Positions 37,651 to 43,526 of a DNA stretch of 64,000 nt are shown here, piece by piece. Position 1 is the stretch's first letter. Each line of letters begins with the position of its first letter. The notes beneath the pieces were generated by a model. The model made no database searches. It saw nothing but the letters and a program-made list of their open reading frames with translations, and was not told the origin of the DNA. Source of the DNA: an uncultured Gammaproteobacteria bacterium (lineage in GTDB: Bacteria; Patescibacteriota; Microgenomatia; JALYQM01); NCBI GenBank assembly GCA_964403585.1, contig CAYOFQ010000001.1:960826-1024825 (forward strand), read 5' to 3'. Made by a program: the position numbers and the translations under genes.

Positions 37651-38514
37651 TTACAAAATATCATGCGGAGTTTCGTCCTGATCAGTTTTCTTTGGCCAAC
37701 GGATATCTCCCGAATTAAAAAGCTTTTTCAACTTGGTTAACGTGGGGAATTTGTCTGCATCACTGAATTTCTGCTCCTGCAAATCTTCTTTCCAGTTACC
37801 AAACTCATATTCGGGAAGATTTTTAGCCGCCTTACCCTGTGTAATACGGTTTATCTCAAGCAATACTGCAGTTTTGGCAAAGTTAAGACGACCTTCCTTT
37901 TCCAACCGGCGCACCGAGATATAAATAACATCCGAATGGAGGACTTTTATTTTAGCACCCTTTTTAACCGCCCGGGCAATGTAGTCAAAATCCTCCCCTA
38001 CTTTAACTTCCGCATCAAATCCATTTAAAATACTGTGATACTTTTTAGTGCTGAAAATACACCACCCCATTCCTACCGGTTCAATGAGTTGCATAATTTC
38101 GATATACATATTGCCGAGTGCACATAAAACAGCATCTTCGGTACGGGAAGAAAGCGGTTTATAGTTTATCGTAGCCAAATCAAGCTCACGTTCCTGCATT
38201 TCGGCAATAGTATGGGCCAGGAAATGCGGTTTCATCTGAGTATCGGCATCTAAAAATAAGAGCAAATCGTGCTTGGCTAAAGAAGCACCATAGTTGCGTT
38301 GGGCGGACACTCCCCTATTAGGAGCTACTACCGAAGTCAGATGCGGTAAAACATCCTTGTGCTTCTCAATTACCGAAACAGTTTTATCCGTCGAGTTACC
38401 GTCAACGACAATCACTTCAAAGTTTTTGTAGGTTTGTTTAGAAAGCGAAGTGAGTAGTTTTCCAATGTAAAGTTCTTCGTTCAAACAGGGAATTATTATT
38501 GAAATAGGCTGCAT
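37651..38514 (-). CDS. Family 2 glycosyltransferase
   Basis: GT-A fold motifs are present (IIIPCLNEE, VIVVDGNSTD, a DxD at FLDAD). Confidence 0.75.
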   Translation of the reverse strand: MQPISIIIPCLNEELYIGKLLTSLSKQTYKNFEVIVVDGNSTDKTVSVIEKHKDVLPHLTSVVAPNRGVSAQRNYGASLAKHDLLLFLDADTQMKPHFLAHTIAEMQERELDLATINYKPLSSRTEDAVLCALGNMYIEIMQLIEPVGMGWCIFSTKKYHSILNGFDAEVKVGEDFDYIARAVKKGAKIKVLHSDVIYISVRRLEKEGRLNFAKTAVLLEINRITQGKAAKNLPEYEFGNWKEDLQEQKFSDADKFPTLTKLKKLFNSGDIRWPKKTDQDETPHDIL

Positions 38515-38579
38515 AGGTTTATCTCTCAGCTACAATCGTACTATACGAGTAACCTTGCATCAAGTCATGGTAATGAAAC

Positions 38580-38656
38580 TGGTGGACCCTAGAGGACTCG
38601 AACCTCTGACCTTCACAATGTCAATGTGACGCTCTAACCAACTGAGCTAAGAGTCC
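38580..38656 (-). tRNA. tRNA-Val (anticodon GAC), CCA encoded
   Basis: The minus strand reads GGACTCTTAGCTCAGTTGGTTAGAGCGTCACATTGACATTGTGAAGGTCAGAGGTTCGAGTCCTCTAGGGTCCACCA. The cloverleaf shows a 7 bp acceptor stem, a TTGACAT anticodon loop and a GTTCGAGTCC T-arm. Confidence 0.85.
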
Positions 38657-38816
38657 CGAAGCTCATTAATGTATTTATCAATAAGCTGAGGTCCCGCGCA
38701 CATAGTGCGTGGGACGGATTCCATTGGAATCTGCCTAATCATACAAAAAAACCGCAATAAACACAATATTCACTACAGCACTTTACCCGAGGCAAAAAAC
38801 TCATTACACTGGGTAT

Positions 38817-41381
38817 ATGCAAGAGATTCAAAAATTCGTTTCCTGGTATTTTTACCGGGTATTAATAGCTCACTTTCACTTTATCAACAATTCACTGGCT
38901 AAGGTCGAAGATGTCATTGGTATTACCACTAACGTCAGATTCTTTTTTACCCCCATCTACGGTGATCGCAGCTGGTTTGGACGAATTTTTTCTGTTTTTA
39001 TCCGAACCTGCGTAATTTTGGTTGGTGTACTGGTATTCATGCTCAGCTCGGTTATTCTCTTTACCGTACCACTAATCTGGTTATCCTCCTTACTACTGAT
39101 GTTCCGCTATCCGGCGTTTGCCGCAGTACCGATAGTAGGTTTCATGTACTTTGCTGTCAGCGCACGAAAAAAGCCATTTAAAATTCACCCTATACACGCA
39201 AAAAACTATGATTTACGTCCCTACTGTGACCTGGAATCCAAATATATCCTTCAGCTGGCTGGTACGTCTGTTTTTTACGACCGACTATTAAAAACTGAAG
39301 ACGTCAAACATTTTATCCAAAGAACACTTCTCCCCGTTAACGAAATCCTCCCGGTTCTACAGCAACAACCTTACTCGATGCAGAATATGTCAACCGCGCT
39401 GTTTCAATTAGCACAGGAACAGAAGATACGGTATATACGAACCAATCATATTTTTCTGGCACTCCTCCTCCTTAACGCAGCATTCATCGACACGATCTTA
39501 AAAAAACATAAGATGGACATTCATATTATCCAAACGTACATCTCCTGGGACGAATATGAATTCAACCTTGTGAATCCGCCGGATTTGTGGGATGCCGATT
39601 ATCAGCTGCTTGTTGGTGGTGGCACTAACAGAACCTGGCAAGGTACGGTTACCCCTATACTCAACCAATATGGATACGATTTAAATCAGGCAGTAGTGAA
39701 TGAACCCAATAAGGTAATTCGTAATGAACTTATCAAAGAGATCGAAAAGTCACTGCAAAAAAGCGAAAACTCCAATGTCTTACTGATCGGCGAAATCGGC
39801 GTTGGCAAAGATACCTTAGTAAGAGAGATCGCGCAGTGGATTAATTCAGGAGTAGTTCGCGGACCACTCTGGAGTAAACGAATTATAGATTTGGATATCG
39901 GGCGTCTTTTTGCCGGAACTACAGATAAAGGATCCTTTGAAGCCCGCGTCGAGTCAATTATTGATGAGATCGAACGCAGCAGTAATATAATTCTCTATCT
40001 GAATGACTTTACAGCAGCCATCGAAACCAAAACCAAAGAAGGAATTAACCTGTTCTCTCTATTACAAAAACCAATCACCTCCGGAAGAGTAAAAATAATC
40101 GCCGCCATTACACCAAAAGAATATAAGGCACTTGAACAGAATAATCCCCTCTTTTTAGGACAATTTACCATGATAAAAGTACCGGAAACCGATCCGGTCG
40201 AGTCGGCTTCGATTATCCACACATCCGCCCTGGAATATGAAGAAAAATATCACCTGTTTTTCCCCTACCCTATCCTCGATTTAGTAGTCACCTATGCCAA
40301 AAACTATATCCATGAAGGATTCTTTCCTGCCAAAGCCCTGGCCCTGGTTGAGGATGTCGCGGTAAGCGTTTTTAATGCTTCAAATAAGGATCAGTGGATA
40401 ACCAGGTACGGGCGAAGAATACCGGTACTAGAACCTGCAATTAACGCCTTGGTAAAAGCCAAAACCAATATTCCCGTTGGAGATATTGAATATAACGAAG
40501 CGCAAACCTTACTCCACATGGAAGACGAGTTTAGAAAATATATTGTTGACCAATCGGATGCTGTTCATGTTATTTCCGAAGTATTGAGACGCAATCGTTC
40601 CGGCTTGCGTAACACTAATAAACCAATCGGCTCATTCCTCTTTGTCGGACCAACCGGTGTTGGAAAAACCGAAATGGCCAAAACACTGGCCCGAATTTAT
40701 TACGGAAACGAAAAGCAAATGATTCGTCTGGATATGAGCGAATACCAGTCACAGGACAGTATTGATCGCCTCATTGGCAATACTTCTCAAAGTACAAGTT
40801 TGGAATCCCTGGTCCAAATCATCCGGAAACAACCCTACAGTCTCATCCTGTTGGATGAATTAGAGAAAGCCCATCCACGGATTTTGGACCTTTTCCTTCA
40901 GGTATTGGACGATGCCCGGCTCACCGATGCCTTCGGTACTACTGTTGAATTCAATGAAACAATCATTATTGCCACCAGCAACGCCGGCACACAGGAGATT
41001 ACCAAACAGTTTCAGTCCATAACCTCCTCCGAACAATACCAGGTCATTCAACAAAATCTTTACCACATACTTGCACCATATTTTAGAACAGAATTTTTAA
41101 ACCGGTTTGACGAAATAATTCTCTTTAAACCGCTTACCAAACAAAGCCTGGAAAAAGTAGTCCAAATGCAGCTTACCAAGATCGCCAAACAATTATATGA
41201 AACCAAAAAAGTCACGATTACTTTCAGTCAGGAAACTATCGATACTCTGATTAAAACCGGCTATAACCCTGAACTTGGTGCCCGACCGCTTCAACGTGCC
41301 ATCCAGGATCAGCTCGAGTCAAAAATCGCGACCATGATACTGGAAGGAAAAATCACTGAAGGGCAGTCGATACAAATTTAA
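38817..41381 (+). CDS. Membrane-anchored Clp/Hsp100-like AAA+ protein. The D1 ATPase motifs are degenerate and D2 is intact.
   Basis: There are 2-3 N-terminal TM helices (FGRIFSVFIRTCVILVGVLVFMLSSVILFTVPLIWLSSLLLMF). A Clp_N-like repeat follows (NHIFLALLLLNAAFIDTILKKH). D1 has a Walker A of GEIGVGKD, where Lys-Asp replaces Lys-Thr/Ser, and a Walker B of ILYLNDF with no Glu. D2 has GPTGVGKT, LILLDELEKAH and a GARPLQRAI sensor. The exact start is uncertain. Confidence 0.65.
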   Translation: MQEIQKFVSWYFYRVLIAHFHFINNSLAKVEDVIGITTNVRFFFTPIYGDRSWFGRIFSVFIRTCVILVGVLVFMLSSVILFTVPLIWLSSLLLMFRYPAFAAVPIVGFMYFAVSARKKPFKIHPIHAKNYDLRPYCDLESKYILQLAGTSVFYDRLLKTEDVKHFIQRTLLPVNEILPVLQQQPYSMQNMSTALFQLAQEQKIRYIRTNHIFLALLLLNAAFIDTILKKHKMDIHIIQTYISWDEYEFNLVNPPDLWDADYQLLVGGGTNRTWQGTVTPILNQYGYDLNQAVVNEPNKVIRNELIKEIEKSLQKSENSNVLLIGEIGVGKDTLVREIAQWINSGVVRGPLWSKRIIDLDIGRLFAGTTDKGSFEARVESIIDEIERSSNIILYLNDFTAAIETKTKEGINLFSLLQKPITSGRVKIIAAITPKEYKALEQNNPLFLGQFTMIKVPETDPVESASIIHTSALEYEEKYHLFFPYPILDLVVTYAKNYIHEGFFPAKALALVEDVAVSVFNASNKDQWITRYGRRIPVLEPAINALVKAKTNIPVGDIEYNEAQTLLHMEDEFRKYIVDQSDAVHVISEVLRRNRSGLRNTNKPIGSFLFVGPTGVGKTEMAKTLARIYYGNEKQMIRLDMSEYQSQDSIDRLIGNTSQSTSLESLVQIIRKQPYSLILLDELEKAHPRILDLFLQVLDDARLTDAFGTTVEFNETIIIATSNAGTQEITKQFQSITSSEQYQVIQQNLYHILAPYFRTEFLNRFDEIILFKPLTKQSLEKVVQMQLTKIAKQLYETKKVTITFSQETIDTLIKTGYNPELGARPLQRAIQDQLESKIATMILEGKITEGQSIQI

Positions 41382-41387
41382 GACTAT

Positions 41388-41519
41388 ATGAGAAACAAAA
41401 AATTACTTACCTGTATAATTCTCGCCGGAGTAGTAATCTGTGGGTGCTACCTATACGTTAGAATGTCATATCCATCATCTGGATGTATAGATTATGGACA
41501 TGTTACATACTGTGAATGA
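41388..41519 (+). CDS. Possible 43 aa cysteine-rich small membrane/secreted peptide (MRNKKLLTCIILAGVVICGCYLYVRMSYPSSGCIDYGHVTYCE)
   Basis: This is an untracked small ORF directly after the Clp-like stop. It has 6 Cys and a hydrophobic N-terminus. No clear SD is present. Confidence 0.25.
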   Translation: MRNKKLLTCIILAGVVICGCYLYVRMSYPSSGCIDYGHVTYCE

Positions 41520-41688
41520 GCGATGCCATCAGCCGGTTCACCCACATAAGAAATTTGTTCAAATTTGACTATTTATATACTATAATCTTGAGCATCTCCT
41601 CGAGGTAGTTTTGGAGTCGTTCCGAAATACTACGTACAGGAGTTGTTCTTTAACACACCGTATAATTATCTATCTCCCCTCTATAGAG

Positions 41689-41732
41689 CGGTGAAATGAG
41701 CTGATGAAATAGTCGGTTGATTTCACCGTTTT
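41689..41732 (+). terminator. Hairpin plus T4 in the 5' leader of the second GC-rich gene. Candidate attenuator or terminator.
   Basis: The sequence cggtgaaat...atttcaccg forms a 9 bp stem with a loop of about 22 nt, followed by TTTT. It lies about 100 nt upstream of the GTG start. Confidence 0.4.
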
Positions 41733-41826
41733 AGAAAGGGGGTGGTAGGATTCCGAACAACAAAACCAGGAATAATCCCTAAGATGACGTTGGACCAGTG
41801 TGGTTCAACTCAACAAGGAGAAATCT

Positions 41827-42309
41827 GTGTTAGGCTTACCACGGCGACTCATCGTAGTCGCACTCGCGATCGCGGCCATGCTCGTGGCCATTGCACCCGA
41901 TGGGGCGGCTCACGCCGCTCCCGCCAACCGGCAAACCACCATTGCTGCCTACATCGCTTCACCGGCCTCTCAAGCCACAACGGCCGACGAGAACGACGAC
42001 CACCCGCCGGAATGTAGCGCGATGATTGGCAGCAAGTATGGCTGGCGCTACACCTTCGGCGTGGGACAATGCATCAAGCTGACCGAGACCATCTGGATCA
42101 CCTTCCTGGGGGCTACCGTTACTGAAGCTGGTCATACTGTCGAGGTGCTCGTGTCGGTAGGTAGCGACCGGCGTGTCTACGAGGCGCTACTCGTAACACC
42201 CTACAACGCGAACTACAGCGAAGCCACCTTGTACGCCACGCACGTGTGCCAGAACATCCACCTCTGGTACTATGGAACGAGCATGCAGCTCGGGGCGAAA
42301 ATCGTGTAG
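41827..42309 (+). CDS. Small secreted protein with a twin-arginine-like signal peptide, encoded in a 60-70% GC island. Function unknown.
   Basis: A GTG start is preceded by AAGGAG plus 6 nt. The signal peptide is MLGLPRRLIVVALAIAAMLVAIAPDGAAHA|AP. The gene is strongly GC3-rich, unlike all of its neighbours. The mature protein has 3 Cys. Confidence 0.6.
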   Translation: MLGLPRRLIVVALAIAAMLVAIAPDGAAHAAPANRQTTIAAYIASPASQATTADENDDHPPECSAMIGSKYGWRYTFGVGQCIKLTETIWITFLGATVTEAGHTVEVLVSVGSDRRVYEALLVTPYNANYSEATLYATHVCQNIHLWYYGTSMQLGAKIV

Positions 42310-42343
42310 AACGCGGTAGATAACGCTCGTCGGAGTTCGTGAT

Positions 42344-42384
42344 TCACGCGCCGTGTGGCGAAACCCGTTTCATACGGCGCGTGA
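42344..42384. repeat. GC-rich perfect 11 bp inverted repeat (tcacgcgccgt ... acggcgcgtga) at the 3' boundary of the GC island
   Basis: The repeat was read directly. No T-run follows it. Confidence 0.5.
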
Positions 42385-42428
42385 GGTTGCGAAGGAAAAT
42401 AATTATACGGTGTGTATTAGTTGAGTTC

Positions 42429-43526
42429 CTATTTTAGGAAACCCTTCGACACAAATATATCATTGTACGTCACAAAGAGTAACAGCAAAATCAGCAGCGC
42501 GAAGAACACCGCGTGCGACCACTGCTCAAACTTCGGATTCGGCTTACGTCGGGTAATTGCTTCATACACCATGAACGCAAAACGGCCACCATCAAGTGCC
42601 GGAATCGGCAATAAGTTAAATATCGCCAGGTTTACCGACAACAATCCGGCGAACTGCAAACATGATAAGAAGCTGTTTCCACAGAACAACTGCGAAGCAC
42701 GGTAAATGCCTACCGGACCGGCTACCTCAGCGGGAACTTTCTGCTGAAATGCAATTGATGTCACGAGATTTTTTAATGCGGGAAGGATCTGTTTGGACAT
42801 TTCCACCGTATCATTAAAACCCGCTCCAATGCCATAGAAAGGCATTTGATACCAGGGATAGAATGTCGTTCTCAATTTCTGATCCAGTTGCACACCCAAA
42901 GCACCTTGACCAGCCGGCGGATTACTGCGTGGCACTACCTGCACATCCAATTTTTCCGATCCTCGAACTAAAGACAACGTAACTTGAGATTCAGCCTGTT
43001 CCTTAACCTTTGCGATCAGGCTTTCGGAATCTTTTACCTTTTCACCATTAATTGCATCTACCCGATCGTTAGGGCGAATACCGGCCACATCAGCCGGAGA
43101 ACCGCTCACTACTTGCCCTACCAGGACATCAATCTGCGGGGGTCGAGAAGGAATACCAATATTTGAGTACACAATTGCAAACAACGCGATACCCAGTATA
43201 AAGTTCATCACCACACCTGCCAGCACAATTACCATTCGTTTCCATAACGCGGCATTCTGAAAATTCTTTGGATCAGATGCATCGGAATAGATGGAGTCTT
43301 CTCCGGTCAAACGGACAAAGCCACCAATCGGCAGCCAGTTTAAAGAGAATAAAGTACGCTCATCAGGTTTACCGGGACCCGGCTTCTTGCCAAACCTTCT
43401 GCCAAAAAGACGTGGAGGCAACCCAAACCCGAACTCTTCAACACGTACACCACTTTTTTTCGCAGCGATAAAATGGCCAAACTCATGAAGAATCACGAGG
43501 ACCAGCAATATAATGATAAAATCCAT
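42429..43526 (-). CDS. rseP: Site-2 protease RseP (M50 zinc metalloprotease with PDZ domain)
   Basis: The HEFGHFIAAK motif (HExxH) sits in the first TM. A PDZ domain and an LDGG motif are present. Confidence 0.88.
   Translation of the reverse strand: MDFIIILLVLVILHEFGHFIAAKKSGVRVEEFGFGLPPRLFGRRFGKKPGPGKPDERTLFSLNWLPIGGFVRLTGEDSIYSDASDPKNFQNAALWKRMVIVLAGVVMNFILGIALFAIVYSNIGIPSRPPQIDVLVGQVVSGSPADVAGIRPNDRVDAINGEKVKDSESLIAKVKEQAESQVTLSLVRGSEKLDVQVVPRSNPPAGQGALGVQLDQKLRTTFYPWYQMPFYGIGAGFNDTVEMSKQILPALKNLVTSIAFQQKVPAEVAGPVGIYRASQLFCGNSFLSCLQFAGLLSVNLAIFNLLPIPALDGGRFAFMVYEAITRRKPNPKFEQWSHAVFFALLILLLLFVTYNDIFVSKGFLK

Follow-up and report, generated by a model that had tools for sequence, protein, structure and literature searches.

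A divergent two-ring Clp/Hsp100-like protein with a predicted membrane module and no pore-loop tyrosines

The Hsp100/Clp proteins are the textbook examples of ATPases associated with diverse cellular activities (AAA+) that pull polypeptides through a central pore with tyrosine-bearing loops, and Hsp70-coupled disaggregation further requires a coiled-coil M-domain. FtsH and Msp1, which belong to a different AAA+ clade, are tethered to the membrane with the entry face of the ring towards the bilayer, while PEX1/PEX6, of that other clade also, combines one dead ring with one active ring; all of these have retained aromatic pore loops and are threading machines. In ClpB the second ring (AAA2, or D2) is the main threading motor, and its pore-loop tyrosine Y653 is essential for disaggregation (PMC6593972). 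Torsins are related to the D2 of Clp/Hsp100, possess an N-terminal hydrophobic, membrane-associated segment but no aromatic pore loops, and work with the small membrane-anchored partners LAP1 and LULL1 (PMC5425593). Here we analyse a 64,000-nucleotide stretch of contig CAYOFQ010000001.1 (assembly GCA_964403585.1; hereafter, the window), in which an open reading frame (ORF) at 38817..41381 of the + strand, stop codon included, encodes an 854-aa two-ring Clp/Hsp100-like protein fused at its N-terminus to a predicted membrane module. The ORF had been picked out in an earlier note, made from the DNA alone, and it exists as described there.

Bacteria of the candidate phyla radiation (CPR) have tiny genomes and host-dependent lives, and their membrane biology is little known; in the literature searched, in which coverage of subscription journals was incomplete, no paper described a Clp/Hsp100 family anchored to the membrane in these bacteria. 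Our comparisons indicate that the window protein is a complete D2 ATPase, apparently devoid of the means by which Hsp100 proteins are known to grip a substrate, couple to Hsp70 or feed a protease. We favour the reading, held tentatively and at a little under even confidence, that D2 powers a membrane remodeller or switch which does not thread polypeptides and works loosely in the manner of a Torsin.

The two ATPase rings

Judged by the ORF list, Pfam, orthologues, an AlphaFold2 model and Foldseek, the 854-aa protein reads as a divergent two-ring member of Clp/Hsp100. It carries the two tandem AAA+ modules of Clp/Hsp100 class I, the second being of AAA_2 type (Pfam, aa 602-767, E 9e-48) and followed by ClpB_D2-small (aa 773-854, E 2e-23), while the first attracts only weak, generic AAA and AAA_lid_9 matches. 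NCBIfam models for ClpB, ClpA, ClpV, ClpK and ClpG all match and all fall far under their cutoffs (422 bits against 1232 for ClpB, 414 against 993 for ClpA and 349 against 885 for TssH (ClpV)), and neither Pfam nor NCBIfam finds a peptidase domain, M41 metalloprotease included. Among PDB sequences, HMMER ranks Thermus thermophilus ClpB (1qvr) first. The AlphaFold2 model (predicted local distance difference test (pLDDT) 84.7; predicted template-modelling score (pTM) 0.73) superposes in Foldseek on protomers of ClpC and ClpB hexamers, with a target TM-score of 0.83-0.87 and a root-mean-square deviation of ~4 Å over ~580 columns. Ten full-length orthologues are 48-100% identical to the window protein. 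All features of the protein described below lie on the + strand.

The D2 large subdomain (aa 566-770; 40512..41126; Pfam AAA_2 and alignments) has its catalytic motifs intact, and the earlier note's description of D2 as fully canonical was accurate as regards these motifs. Alignment places Walker A at GPTGVGKT (aa 611-618; 40647-40670), Walker B at LLDELEKAH (40848-40874, within which DELEKAH is aa 680-686), sensor-1 at TSN (40971-40988) and the arginine finger in EFLNRF (R763; 41091-41108). The D2-small domain (aa 771-854; 41127..41378; Pfam ClpB_D2-small) adds sensor-2, GARP (41277-41288), whose GAR is invariant in alignment A1. Across the divergent family to which the protein belongs, the catalytic residues of Walker A, Walker B, sensor-1, arginine finger and sensor-2 are invariant or nearly so.

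The devices that handle substrate are missing. In an alignment of 83 long proteins, comprising 61 members of the membrane family and 22 canonical Clp proteins, the D1 pore-loop aromatic (K[YF]RG) occurs in 19 of the 22 canonical sequences and in none of the 61, and the D2 pore-loop tyrosine (GY[VI]G) in 21 of the 22 against a single family member. The window protein has Asp at the position of ClpB Y251, within a D1 pore-loop-1 equivalent that lacks any aromatic residue in the alignment (AGTTDKGSFEAR; 39912-39947), and Ser at the position of Y653, within a shortened, degenerate D2 loop (LIGNTSQSTSLESL; 40770-40811), one of two regions in which model confidence is lowest (pLDDT <50 at aa 658-660). 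Family-wide, the D2 pore loop is variable in both sequence and length; where present it abounds in Ser, Thr, Asn and Gln, and it is deleted in 16 members. Only a short connector joins D1 to D2 (aa 526-565; 40392..40511), with no M-domain coiled coil; alignment A1 has a gap of ~115 columns in the family where the ClpB-like proteins P0014-P0016 carry that domain. Nor is there an [ILVM]G[FLM] tripeptide between D2 sensor-1 and the arginine finger, either in the window protein or in P0002-P0010, while the seven ClpC/ClpA-like positive controls all carry one (IGF, LGF or MGF) at the ClpP-docking position, so that the apparent absence of a ClpP-binding loop, already noticed, is real. From the loss of pore tyrosines, M-domain and ClpP loop we infer that the protein would not thread polypeptides processively, and the earlier proposal of a disaggregase-like or translocase-like unfoldase finds no support as far as the canonical mechanism is concerned, given that both rings have lost their pore tyrosines and the M-domain is absent.

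A membrane-tethered threading unfoldase, disaggregase or extractase, in which D2 alone draws membrane proteins or protein aggregates along the axial channel in the manner of Msp1, FtsH or PEX1/PEX6, nevertheless deserves consideration, and we regard it as rather unlikely. In its favour, the D2 catalytic residues, D2-small domain and arginine finger are all intact here, the protomer model superposes on substrate-engaged ClpC and ClpB protomers, and an N-domain face lying against the membrane would be a geometry suited to extracting membrane proteins. The D1 of PEX1/PEX6 is likewise inactive. In ClpB, AAA2 is the main motor (PMC6593972), so that an inactive D1 need not, in principle, preclude threading. 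Against this, the D2 pore tyrosine that is essential in ClpB is absent from 60 of 61 members; the loop, by its variability and its 16 deletions, resembles an unconstrained loop rather than a gripping element; the D1 aromatic is wanting in 61 of 61; and the protein could rely on neither an M-domain for Hsp70 coupling nor a ClpP loop.

The D1 module (aa 291-525; 39687..40391) emerges from alignment with ClpB 1qvr and canonical Clp proteins as a predicted pseudo-ATPase. We aligned its motifs in two ways, by HMMER to T. thermophilus ClpB 1qvr and by MAFFT in family alignments. HMMER pairs GEIGVGKD (Walker A, aa 325-332; 39789-39812) with GEPGVGKT of ClpB, and ILYLNDF (Walker B, aa 392-398; 39990-40010) with ILFIDEL, and for this reason the degeneracy is genuine; both methods uphold the earlier reading of a Walker A without Thr/Ser and a Walker B without the catalytic Glu, and neither reveals intact motifs hidden by misalignment. 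The arginine-finger position, PLFLGQF (40146-40166), offers FLGQF in place of ERRF in the alignment. Neither the Thr of Walker A, nor the Asp-Glu of Walker B, nor either arginine finger survives in D1; where a catalytically competent D1 of Clp/Hsp100 class I has GKT, FIDE and ERRF, the window protein has GKD, LYLND and FLGQF. As far as its sequence part goes, the idea of a machine powered by a single ring stands, the alignments showing a catalytically degenerate D1 beside an intact D2 ATPase.

This degeneracy is under constraint. The window clade (P0001-P0010 and P0038) has GK[D/E] and LYLND, with G, K or N and Q or E at the arginine-finger positions, and the degenerate motifs are invariant across orthologues that are 48-71% identical. 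A canonical D1, with GK[TS], hhhhDE and a single Arg in AFARxF, is found in most of the distant family members; the dead D1 thus appears to be specific to the window clade, and the other traits to be family-wide. Loss of the first Walker B acidic residue (giving ND, SD or PE) accompanies GK[D/E] in 13 of 13 family members and GK[T/S] in none of 44, all 44 of which keep D or E. At least three lineages, namely the window clade, P0013 and P0079, show the co-occurrence; the counts are not corrected for phylogeny. Because the two changes co-vary, the D1 nucleotide site seems remodelled rather than ruined: the pattern suggests remodelling in place of decay, and looks like a compensatory charge swap.

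A dead D1 and the loss of substrate-handling elements are also what might be expected of a scaffold or pseudo-enzyme that, its mechanical function lost, would serve mainly as a platform for assembly or as a regulator, bound to the membrane and dependent on nucleotide, in a role comparable with that of the plant Clp-like proteins SMAX1/D53, and the Pfam NBD_SMAX1 model does match D1 of some relatives. We consider this very unlikely in view of D2, whose catalytic residues are invariant or nearly so. Within the clade, mean identity is 57% for the D1 large subdomain and 67% for the D2 large subdomain, the best-conserved domain, which argues for selection on ATP hydrolysis.

The membrane module, its partner origin and the linker

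The N-terminal module begins with a cytoplasmic part (aa 1-56; 38817..38984), delineated with a 76-sequence profile and the AlphaFold2 model, in which a long amphipathic helix with a WYF motif precedes FFxP[IL][FY]GD....GR (aa 42-56). A transmembrane hairpin follows, predicted from hydropathy and the AlphaFold2 model (aa 57-116; 38985..39164), with an uncharged core at aa 67-114 (nt 39015-39158) that contains a W88/P92 turn. Arg and Lys flank this hydrophobic core on both sides (residues 56, 63 and 66 before it, 117-122 after it), and AlphaFold2 places helices at residues 2-34, 53-94 and 99-114. In the 76-sequence profile P46 and R63 are invariant, and D50, G55 and W88 are conserved at 86%, 89% and 78%, respectively. 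No Pfam or NCBIfam model matches the module or its standalone relatives. The block is most likely a hairpin of two transmembrane helices with both termini predicted to lie in the cytoplasm, a topology that fits because the ATPase has to be cytoplasmic; the periplasmic turn would be a few residues long, with no extracytoplasmic domain. The membrane anchor proposed in the earlier note therefore holds as regards tethering, the hydrophobic N-terminus being conserved and, as argued below, translated, with membrane insertion predicted, and fails as regards a polytopic anchor.

All this would be void if the true start lay downstream, making the protein soluble, or if the gene were a decaying pseudogene. 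There is no obvious Shine-Dalgarno sequence upstream of the ATG at 38817, and a promoter scan did no better than shuffled sequence. That ATG is, however, the earliest possible start downstream of an in-frame stop at 38736; later in-frame starts all lie within the hydrophobic helices until codon 188, the first beyond the block; and the N-terminal 116 aa are kept in ten orthologues, the most distant of them 48% identical, as well as in 76 module sequences, P46 and R63 being invariant. All 854 codons read through without interruption, the D1 motifs are invariant in their degenerate form, and synteny is conserved. We conclude that the N-terminus is, by every sign of its conservation, translated, and an artefact is so improbable as to be effectively excluded; a soluble product from a downstream start, which the earlier note had kept in view, is not what we find.

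Between hairpin and rings lies a divergent Clp_N-like domain of eight helices (aa ~139-252; 39231..39572), recognised by hhalign, a domain model and Foldseek. Pfam is blind to it, Clp_N going undetected in the window protein, yet the Clp_N-like repeat suspected earlier is there: when hhalign compares the family profile of the region after the transmembrane segment, with the D1 linker excluded, to true Clp_N profiles, the match over 102 columns has a probability of 97% (E 8e-11), and a reversed control reaches 0.8%. Modelled in isolation, the domain folds into eight helices (pLDDT 86.9), and nearly all of its top PDB matches in Foldseek are N-domains of Clp/Hsp100 proteins (ClpC1, ClpA, Hsp104 and ClpV), at TM-scores of ~0.5 and weak E-values (>= 0.2). 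The identity of the domain is thus supported, its divergence notwithstanding.

The membrane module also exists by itself. Standalone proteins of 85-119 aa carry it whole and are encoded directly upstream of Clp-like genes of 831-842 aa, to which they are translationally coupled in all four informative loci: L004 and L008 have TAAnnATG at the junction, and in L009 and L010 the two genes overlap, while a fifth locus, L011, ends 93 nt past the small gene. The ATPases downstream of standalone modules have a different transmembrane segment of their own, unmatched by the module profile, and three of the four keep the motif NRxW..RPTPxLD. The profile has no other match in any locus examined, and no standalone copy occurs in the window. 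On this comparison, two proteins encoded separately elsewhere, a small membrane subunit and its ATPase, are joined in the window protein as a Rosetta-stone fusion, and the pairing by fusion or operon implies that the module is a functional partner and more than a tether. In two loci (L008, 3707-4990; L009, 1221-2465) a protein of 414-427 aa with an MJ0043_C domain (PF27218) is encoded on the same strand, directly upstream of the small module and Clp-like genes; it could be a third component or a case of shared synteny.

A dedicated small membrane subunit, always co-encoded or fused, invites the thought of an ATP-gated conduit or translocon. Six transmembrane hairpins, joined in split systems by the helices of the partner, would enclose a pore in line with a wide, polar AAA+ channel, and D2 would gate or drive a cargo other than unfolded polypeptide, such as a folded protein (as in Bcs1), a lipid-linked molecule or nucleic acid; its function could have to do with the dependence of CPR on hosts. 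The invariant, membrane-proximal P46 and R63, together with W88 (78%), would be in keeping with this, as would a D2 pore loop that is Ser/Thr/Asn/Gln-rich or absent, and the apparent confinement of the family to CPR, where it sits among housekeeping genes. The idea is nonetheless purely architectural, the periplasmic turn is a few residues long with no extracytoplasmic domain, and no conserved neighbouring gene has a relation to cargo; we hold it to be unlikely.

Inserted in the linker between N-domain and D1 is a segment, WDxDY...GGGTNRTWQGTVTP (aa 253-290; 39573..39686; core motif at nt 39615-39668), in which the clade alignment shows GGG(T/S)NRTW running through QGTV into TPxLNQ. Within the clade it is the best-conserved part of the protein (71% mean pairwise identity, 50% of columns invariant), and the wider family retains it as GGxNRxW..(R)xTPxLD, while canonical Clp proteins in our alignments are without it. 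We regard it as a candidate docking or output element.

Distribution and genomic context

We searched 1.84 billion representatives with a profile of the N-terminal 304 aa, accepting E <= 1e-3. There were 187 clusters (50% identity), the best 150 of which include 49 full-length two-ring proteins and 58 standalone modules (<=160 aa). The named members are from Ca. Pacebacteria and Ca. Berkelbacteria, and the best named matches of the GyrB encoded in the window are from Ca. Daviesbacteria (Microgenomates), at 62-66% identity, which places the source organism in CPR; on these grounds the membrane-Clp family seems specific to CPR/Patescibacteria. The window protein shows the set of traits by which we define it, namely an N-module fused to or co-encoded with a Clp-like ATPase, the GGxNRxW..TPxL segment, and no pore tyrosines, M-domain or IGF loop. 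Databases name the relatives 'ATP-dependent Clp protease ATP-binding subunit', a name that is probably misleading. The architecture had been called unusual, but within CPR it is common to a family with at least 49 full-length clusters. The window clade is carried by three GTDB species representatives only. The two closest representative genomes with the clade (L002 and L003) are labelled 'uncultured Gammaproteobacteria bacterium' in third-party annotation records; the GyrB of the L003 contig (P0191) is 85% identical to that of the window, and both labels are probably wrong.

The clp-like gene stands alone on the + strand, in a housekeeping context of PheS, threonyl-tRNA synthetase, a family 2 glycosyltransferase (GT2), tRNA-Val, clp-like, RseP, Frr, Tsf and RpsB, in that order. 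The tRNA-Val(GAC), at 38580-38656 on the - strand, separates the GT2 gene from clp-like and lies ~160 bp before the start of the latter. A promoter and terminator scan of 38500-42450 gave counts equal to those of shuffled sequence. The convergent adjacency of clp-like and RseP is kept down to ~50% identity, and distant family members adjoin ribosomal-protein genes, a release factor or FtsEX-M23. In the 64-kb window and in flanks of up to 10 kb of related loci, no ClpP gene was seen, and no adaptor, secretion or defence gene recurs near family members.

Several identities and partners suggested by similarity or position were considered and set aside. A defence system was rejected, as PADLOC gave only generic AAA+ matches on D2 (DolB, PDC-M37B), with no partner genes nearby; the ClpV/TssH of a type VI secretion system was discounted on its below-cutoff score and the housekeeping neighbours. 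RseP, a site-2 protease, is a poor candidate partner, for it ends a conserved rpsB-tsf-frr cluster, is not co-oriented, and is not adjacent in distant members. The gap between clp-like and rseP (41382-42428) measures ~1 kb in the window and ~110-240 bp in orthologous loci L001 and L003, and it contains a 169-aa ORF (41800-42309, + strand) with a signal-peptide-like N-terminus (…VVALAIAAMLVAIAPDGAAHAAPA…), 59% GC against 44% for the window and no Pfam hit. This ORF is probably a foreign insertion; its GC content, its absence from orthologous loci and its want of family hits led us to reject it as an operon partner.

Two further arrangements were observed. In L005 (6001-14480) and L007 (199-7484) the order is clp-like, release factor, small ORF, FtsE, FtsX and an M23/PcsB-like peptidase, which may reflect lineage synteny or a link to cell-division or envelope machinery, these being two, possibly closely related, loci only. 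Elsewhere in the window, a type IV pilus-type assembly ATPase (T2SSE + MshEN, PilB-like) at 6061-~10142 (+ strand) heads a long run of same-strand genes; CPR biology is pilus-rich, and a PilB-like gene fits it.

Mode of action and comparison with known systems

If the protein is a non-threading membrane remodeller or switch, it would assemble as a hexamer with its N-domain/D1 face set against the inner face of the membrane, beneath a ring of 12 transmembrane helices. D2 would be the sole motor. D1 would form a conserved, non-hydrolysing ring, perhaps still binding nucleotide, and serve as a structural or allosteric spacer that relays the movement of D2 to the N-domains and membrane module. The ATP cycle of D2 would then act as a conformational switch or remodeller, either on the protein's own membrane module or on a membrane-associated client that it recruits, which would bring it closer in function to Clp relatives of the Torsin type, which do not thread, than to ClpB, ClpC or FtsH. 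Four points weigh against this proposal. Non-threading is deduced from missing motifs, and the non-aromatic loops or the GGxNRxW segment might grip a substrate instead; D2 keeps its own arginine finger and D2-small domain, unlike Torsin and like a self-sufficient processive motor; the Asp of the D1 Walker A could still coordinate Mg2+, leaving room for slow turnover of ATP in D1; and the transmembrane topology derives from hydropathy, the positive-inside rule and AlphaFold2 helices.

A bolder version, possible but on the unlikely side, is that the non-threading hexameric Hsp100-derived ATPase and its subunit of two transmembrane helices, permanently joined by gene fusion or through an operon, make up an undescribed CPR machine, an ATP-driven gate, conduit or remodeller; in the window clade the compensatory swap of charges from GKT+DE to GKD+ND would turn D1 into a structural ring locked on its nucleotide. 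By analogy, such a machine would be a bacterial counterpart of the non-threading AAA+ action of Torsins or Bcs1.

The family-wide loss of threading, coupling and docking devices, together with a dedicated fused membrane partner, is more surprising than a dead D1 alone, and it is directly testable; what the earlier note had missed was that membrane anchoring and pore-tyrosine loss extend through the family in CPR, that the dead D1 alone is peculiar to the clade, and that the 'anchor' is a fused copy of a dedicated partner. The family offers a natural test of what a Clp motor does without threading, and is possibly a prokaryotic parallel to Torsins. Its dead but constrained, clade-specific D1 is a clean natural example of the evolution of a pseudo-ATPase ring, and the study of CPR membrane biology could reasonably start from a membrane ATPase that is conserved and specific to the lineage.

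Among described systems, ClpC, ClpA and ClpE share with the window protein the order of Clp_N-like domain, D1, D2 and D2-small, ClpA resembles it further in having no long M-domain, and these three are the best structural matches (target TM-score 0.83-0.87); the window protein differs from them in its N-terminal membrane module, dead D1, and lack of an IGF/LGF loop and of pore-loop tyrosines. ClpB/Hsp104 is also a two-ring Hsp100 without a ClpP loop, its D2 is ~40% identical in ClpB to that of the window protein, and in ClpB too D2 is the main motor, whereas the window protein has no M-domain and no equivalents of Y251 or Y653, has lost the D1 Walker B and arginine fingers, and is predicted to be embedded in the membrane. 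FtsH combines a single AAA module with a fused M41 protease, and the window protein has no peptidase domain. Torsin, finally, has a single AAA+ module whose arginine finger is supplied by its partner, while the window protein has two rings, its own D2 arginine finger (R763) and sensor-2, and a partner that is a protein of two transmembrane helices without an AAA-like fold. Because of its two rings and its own arginine finger it is not a member of the Torsin family, and the likeness would be one of functional analogy, not orthology.

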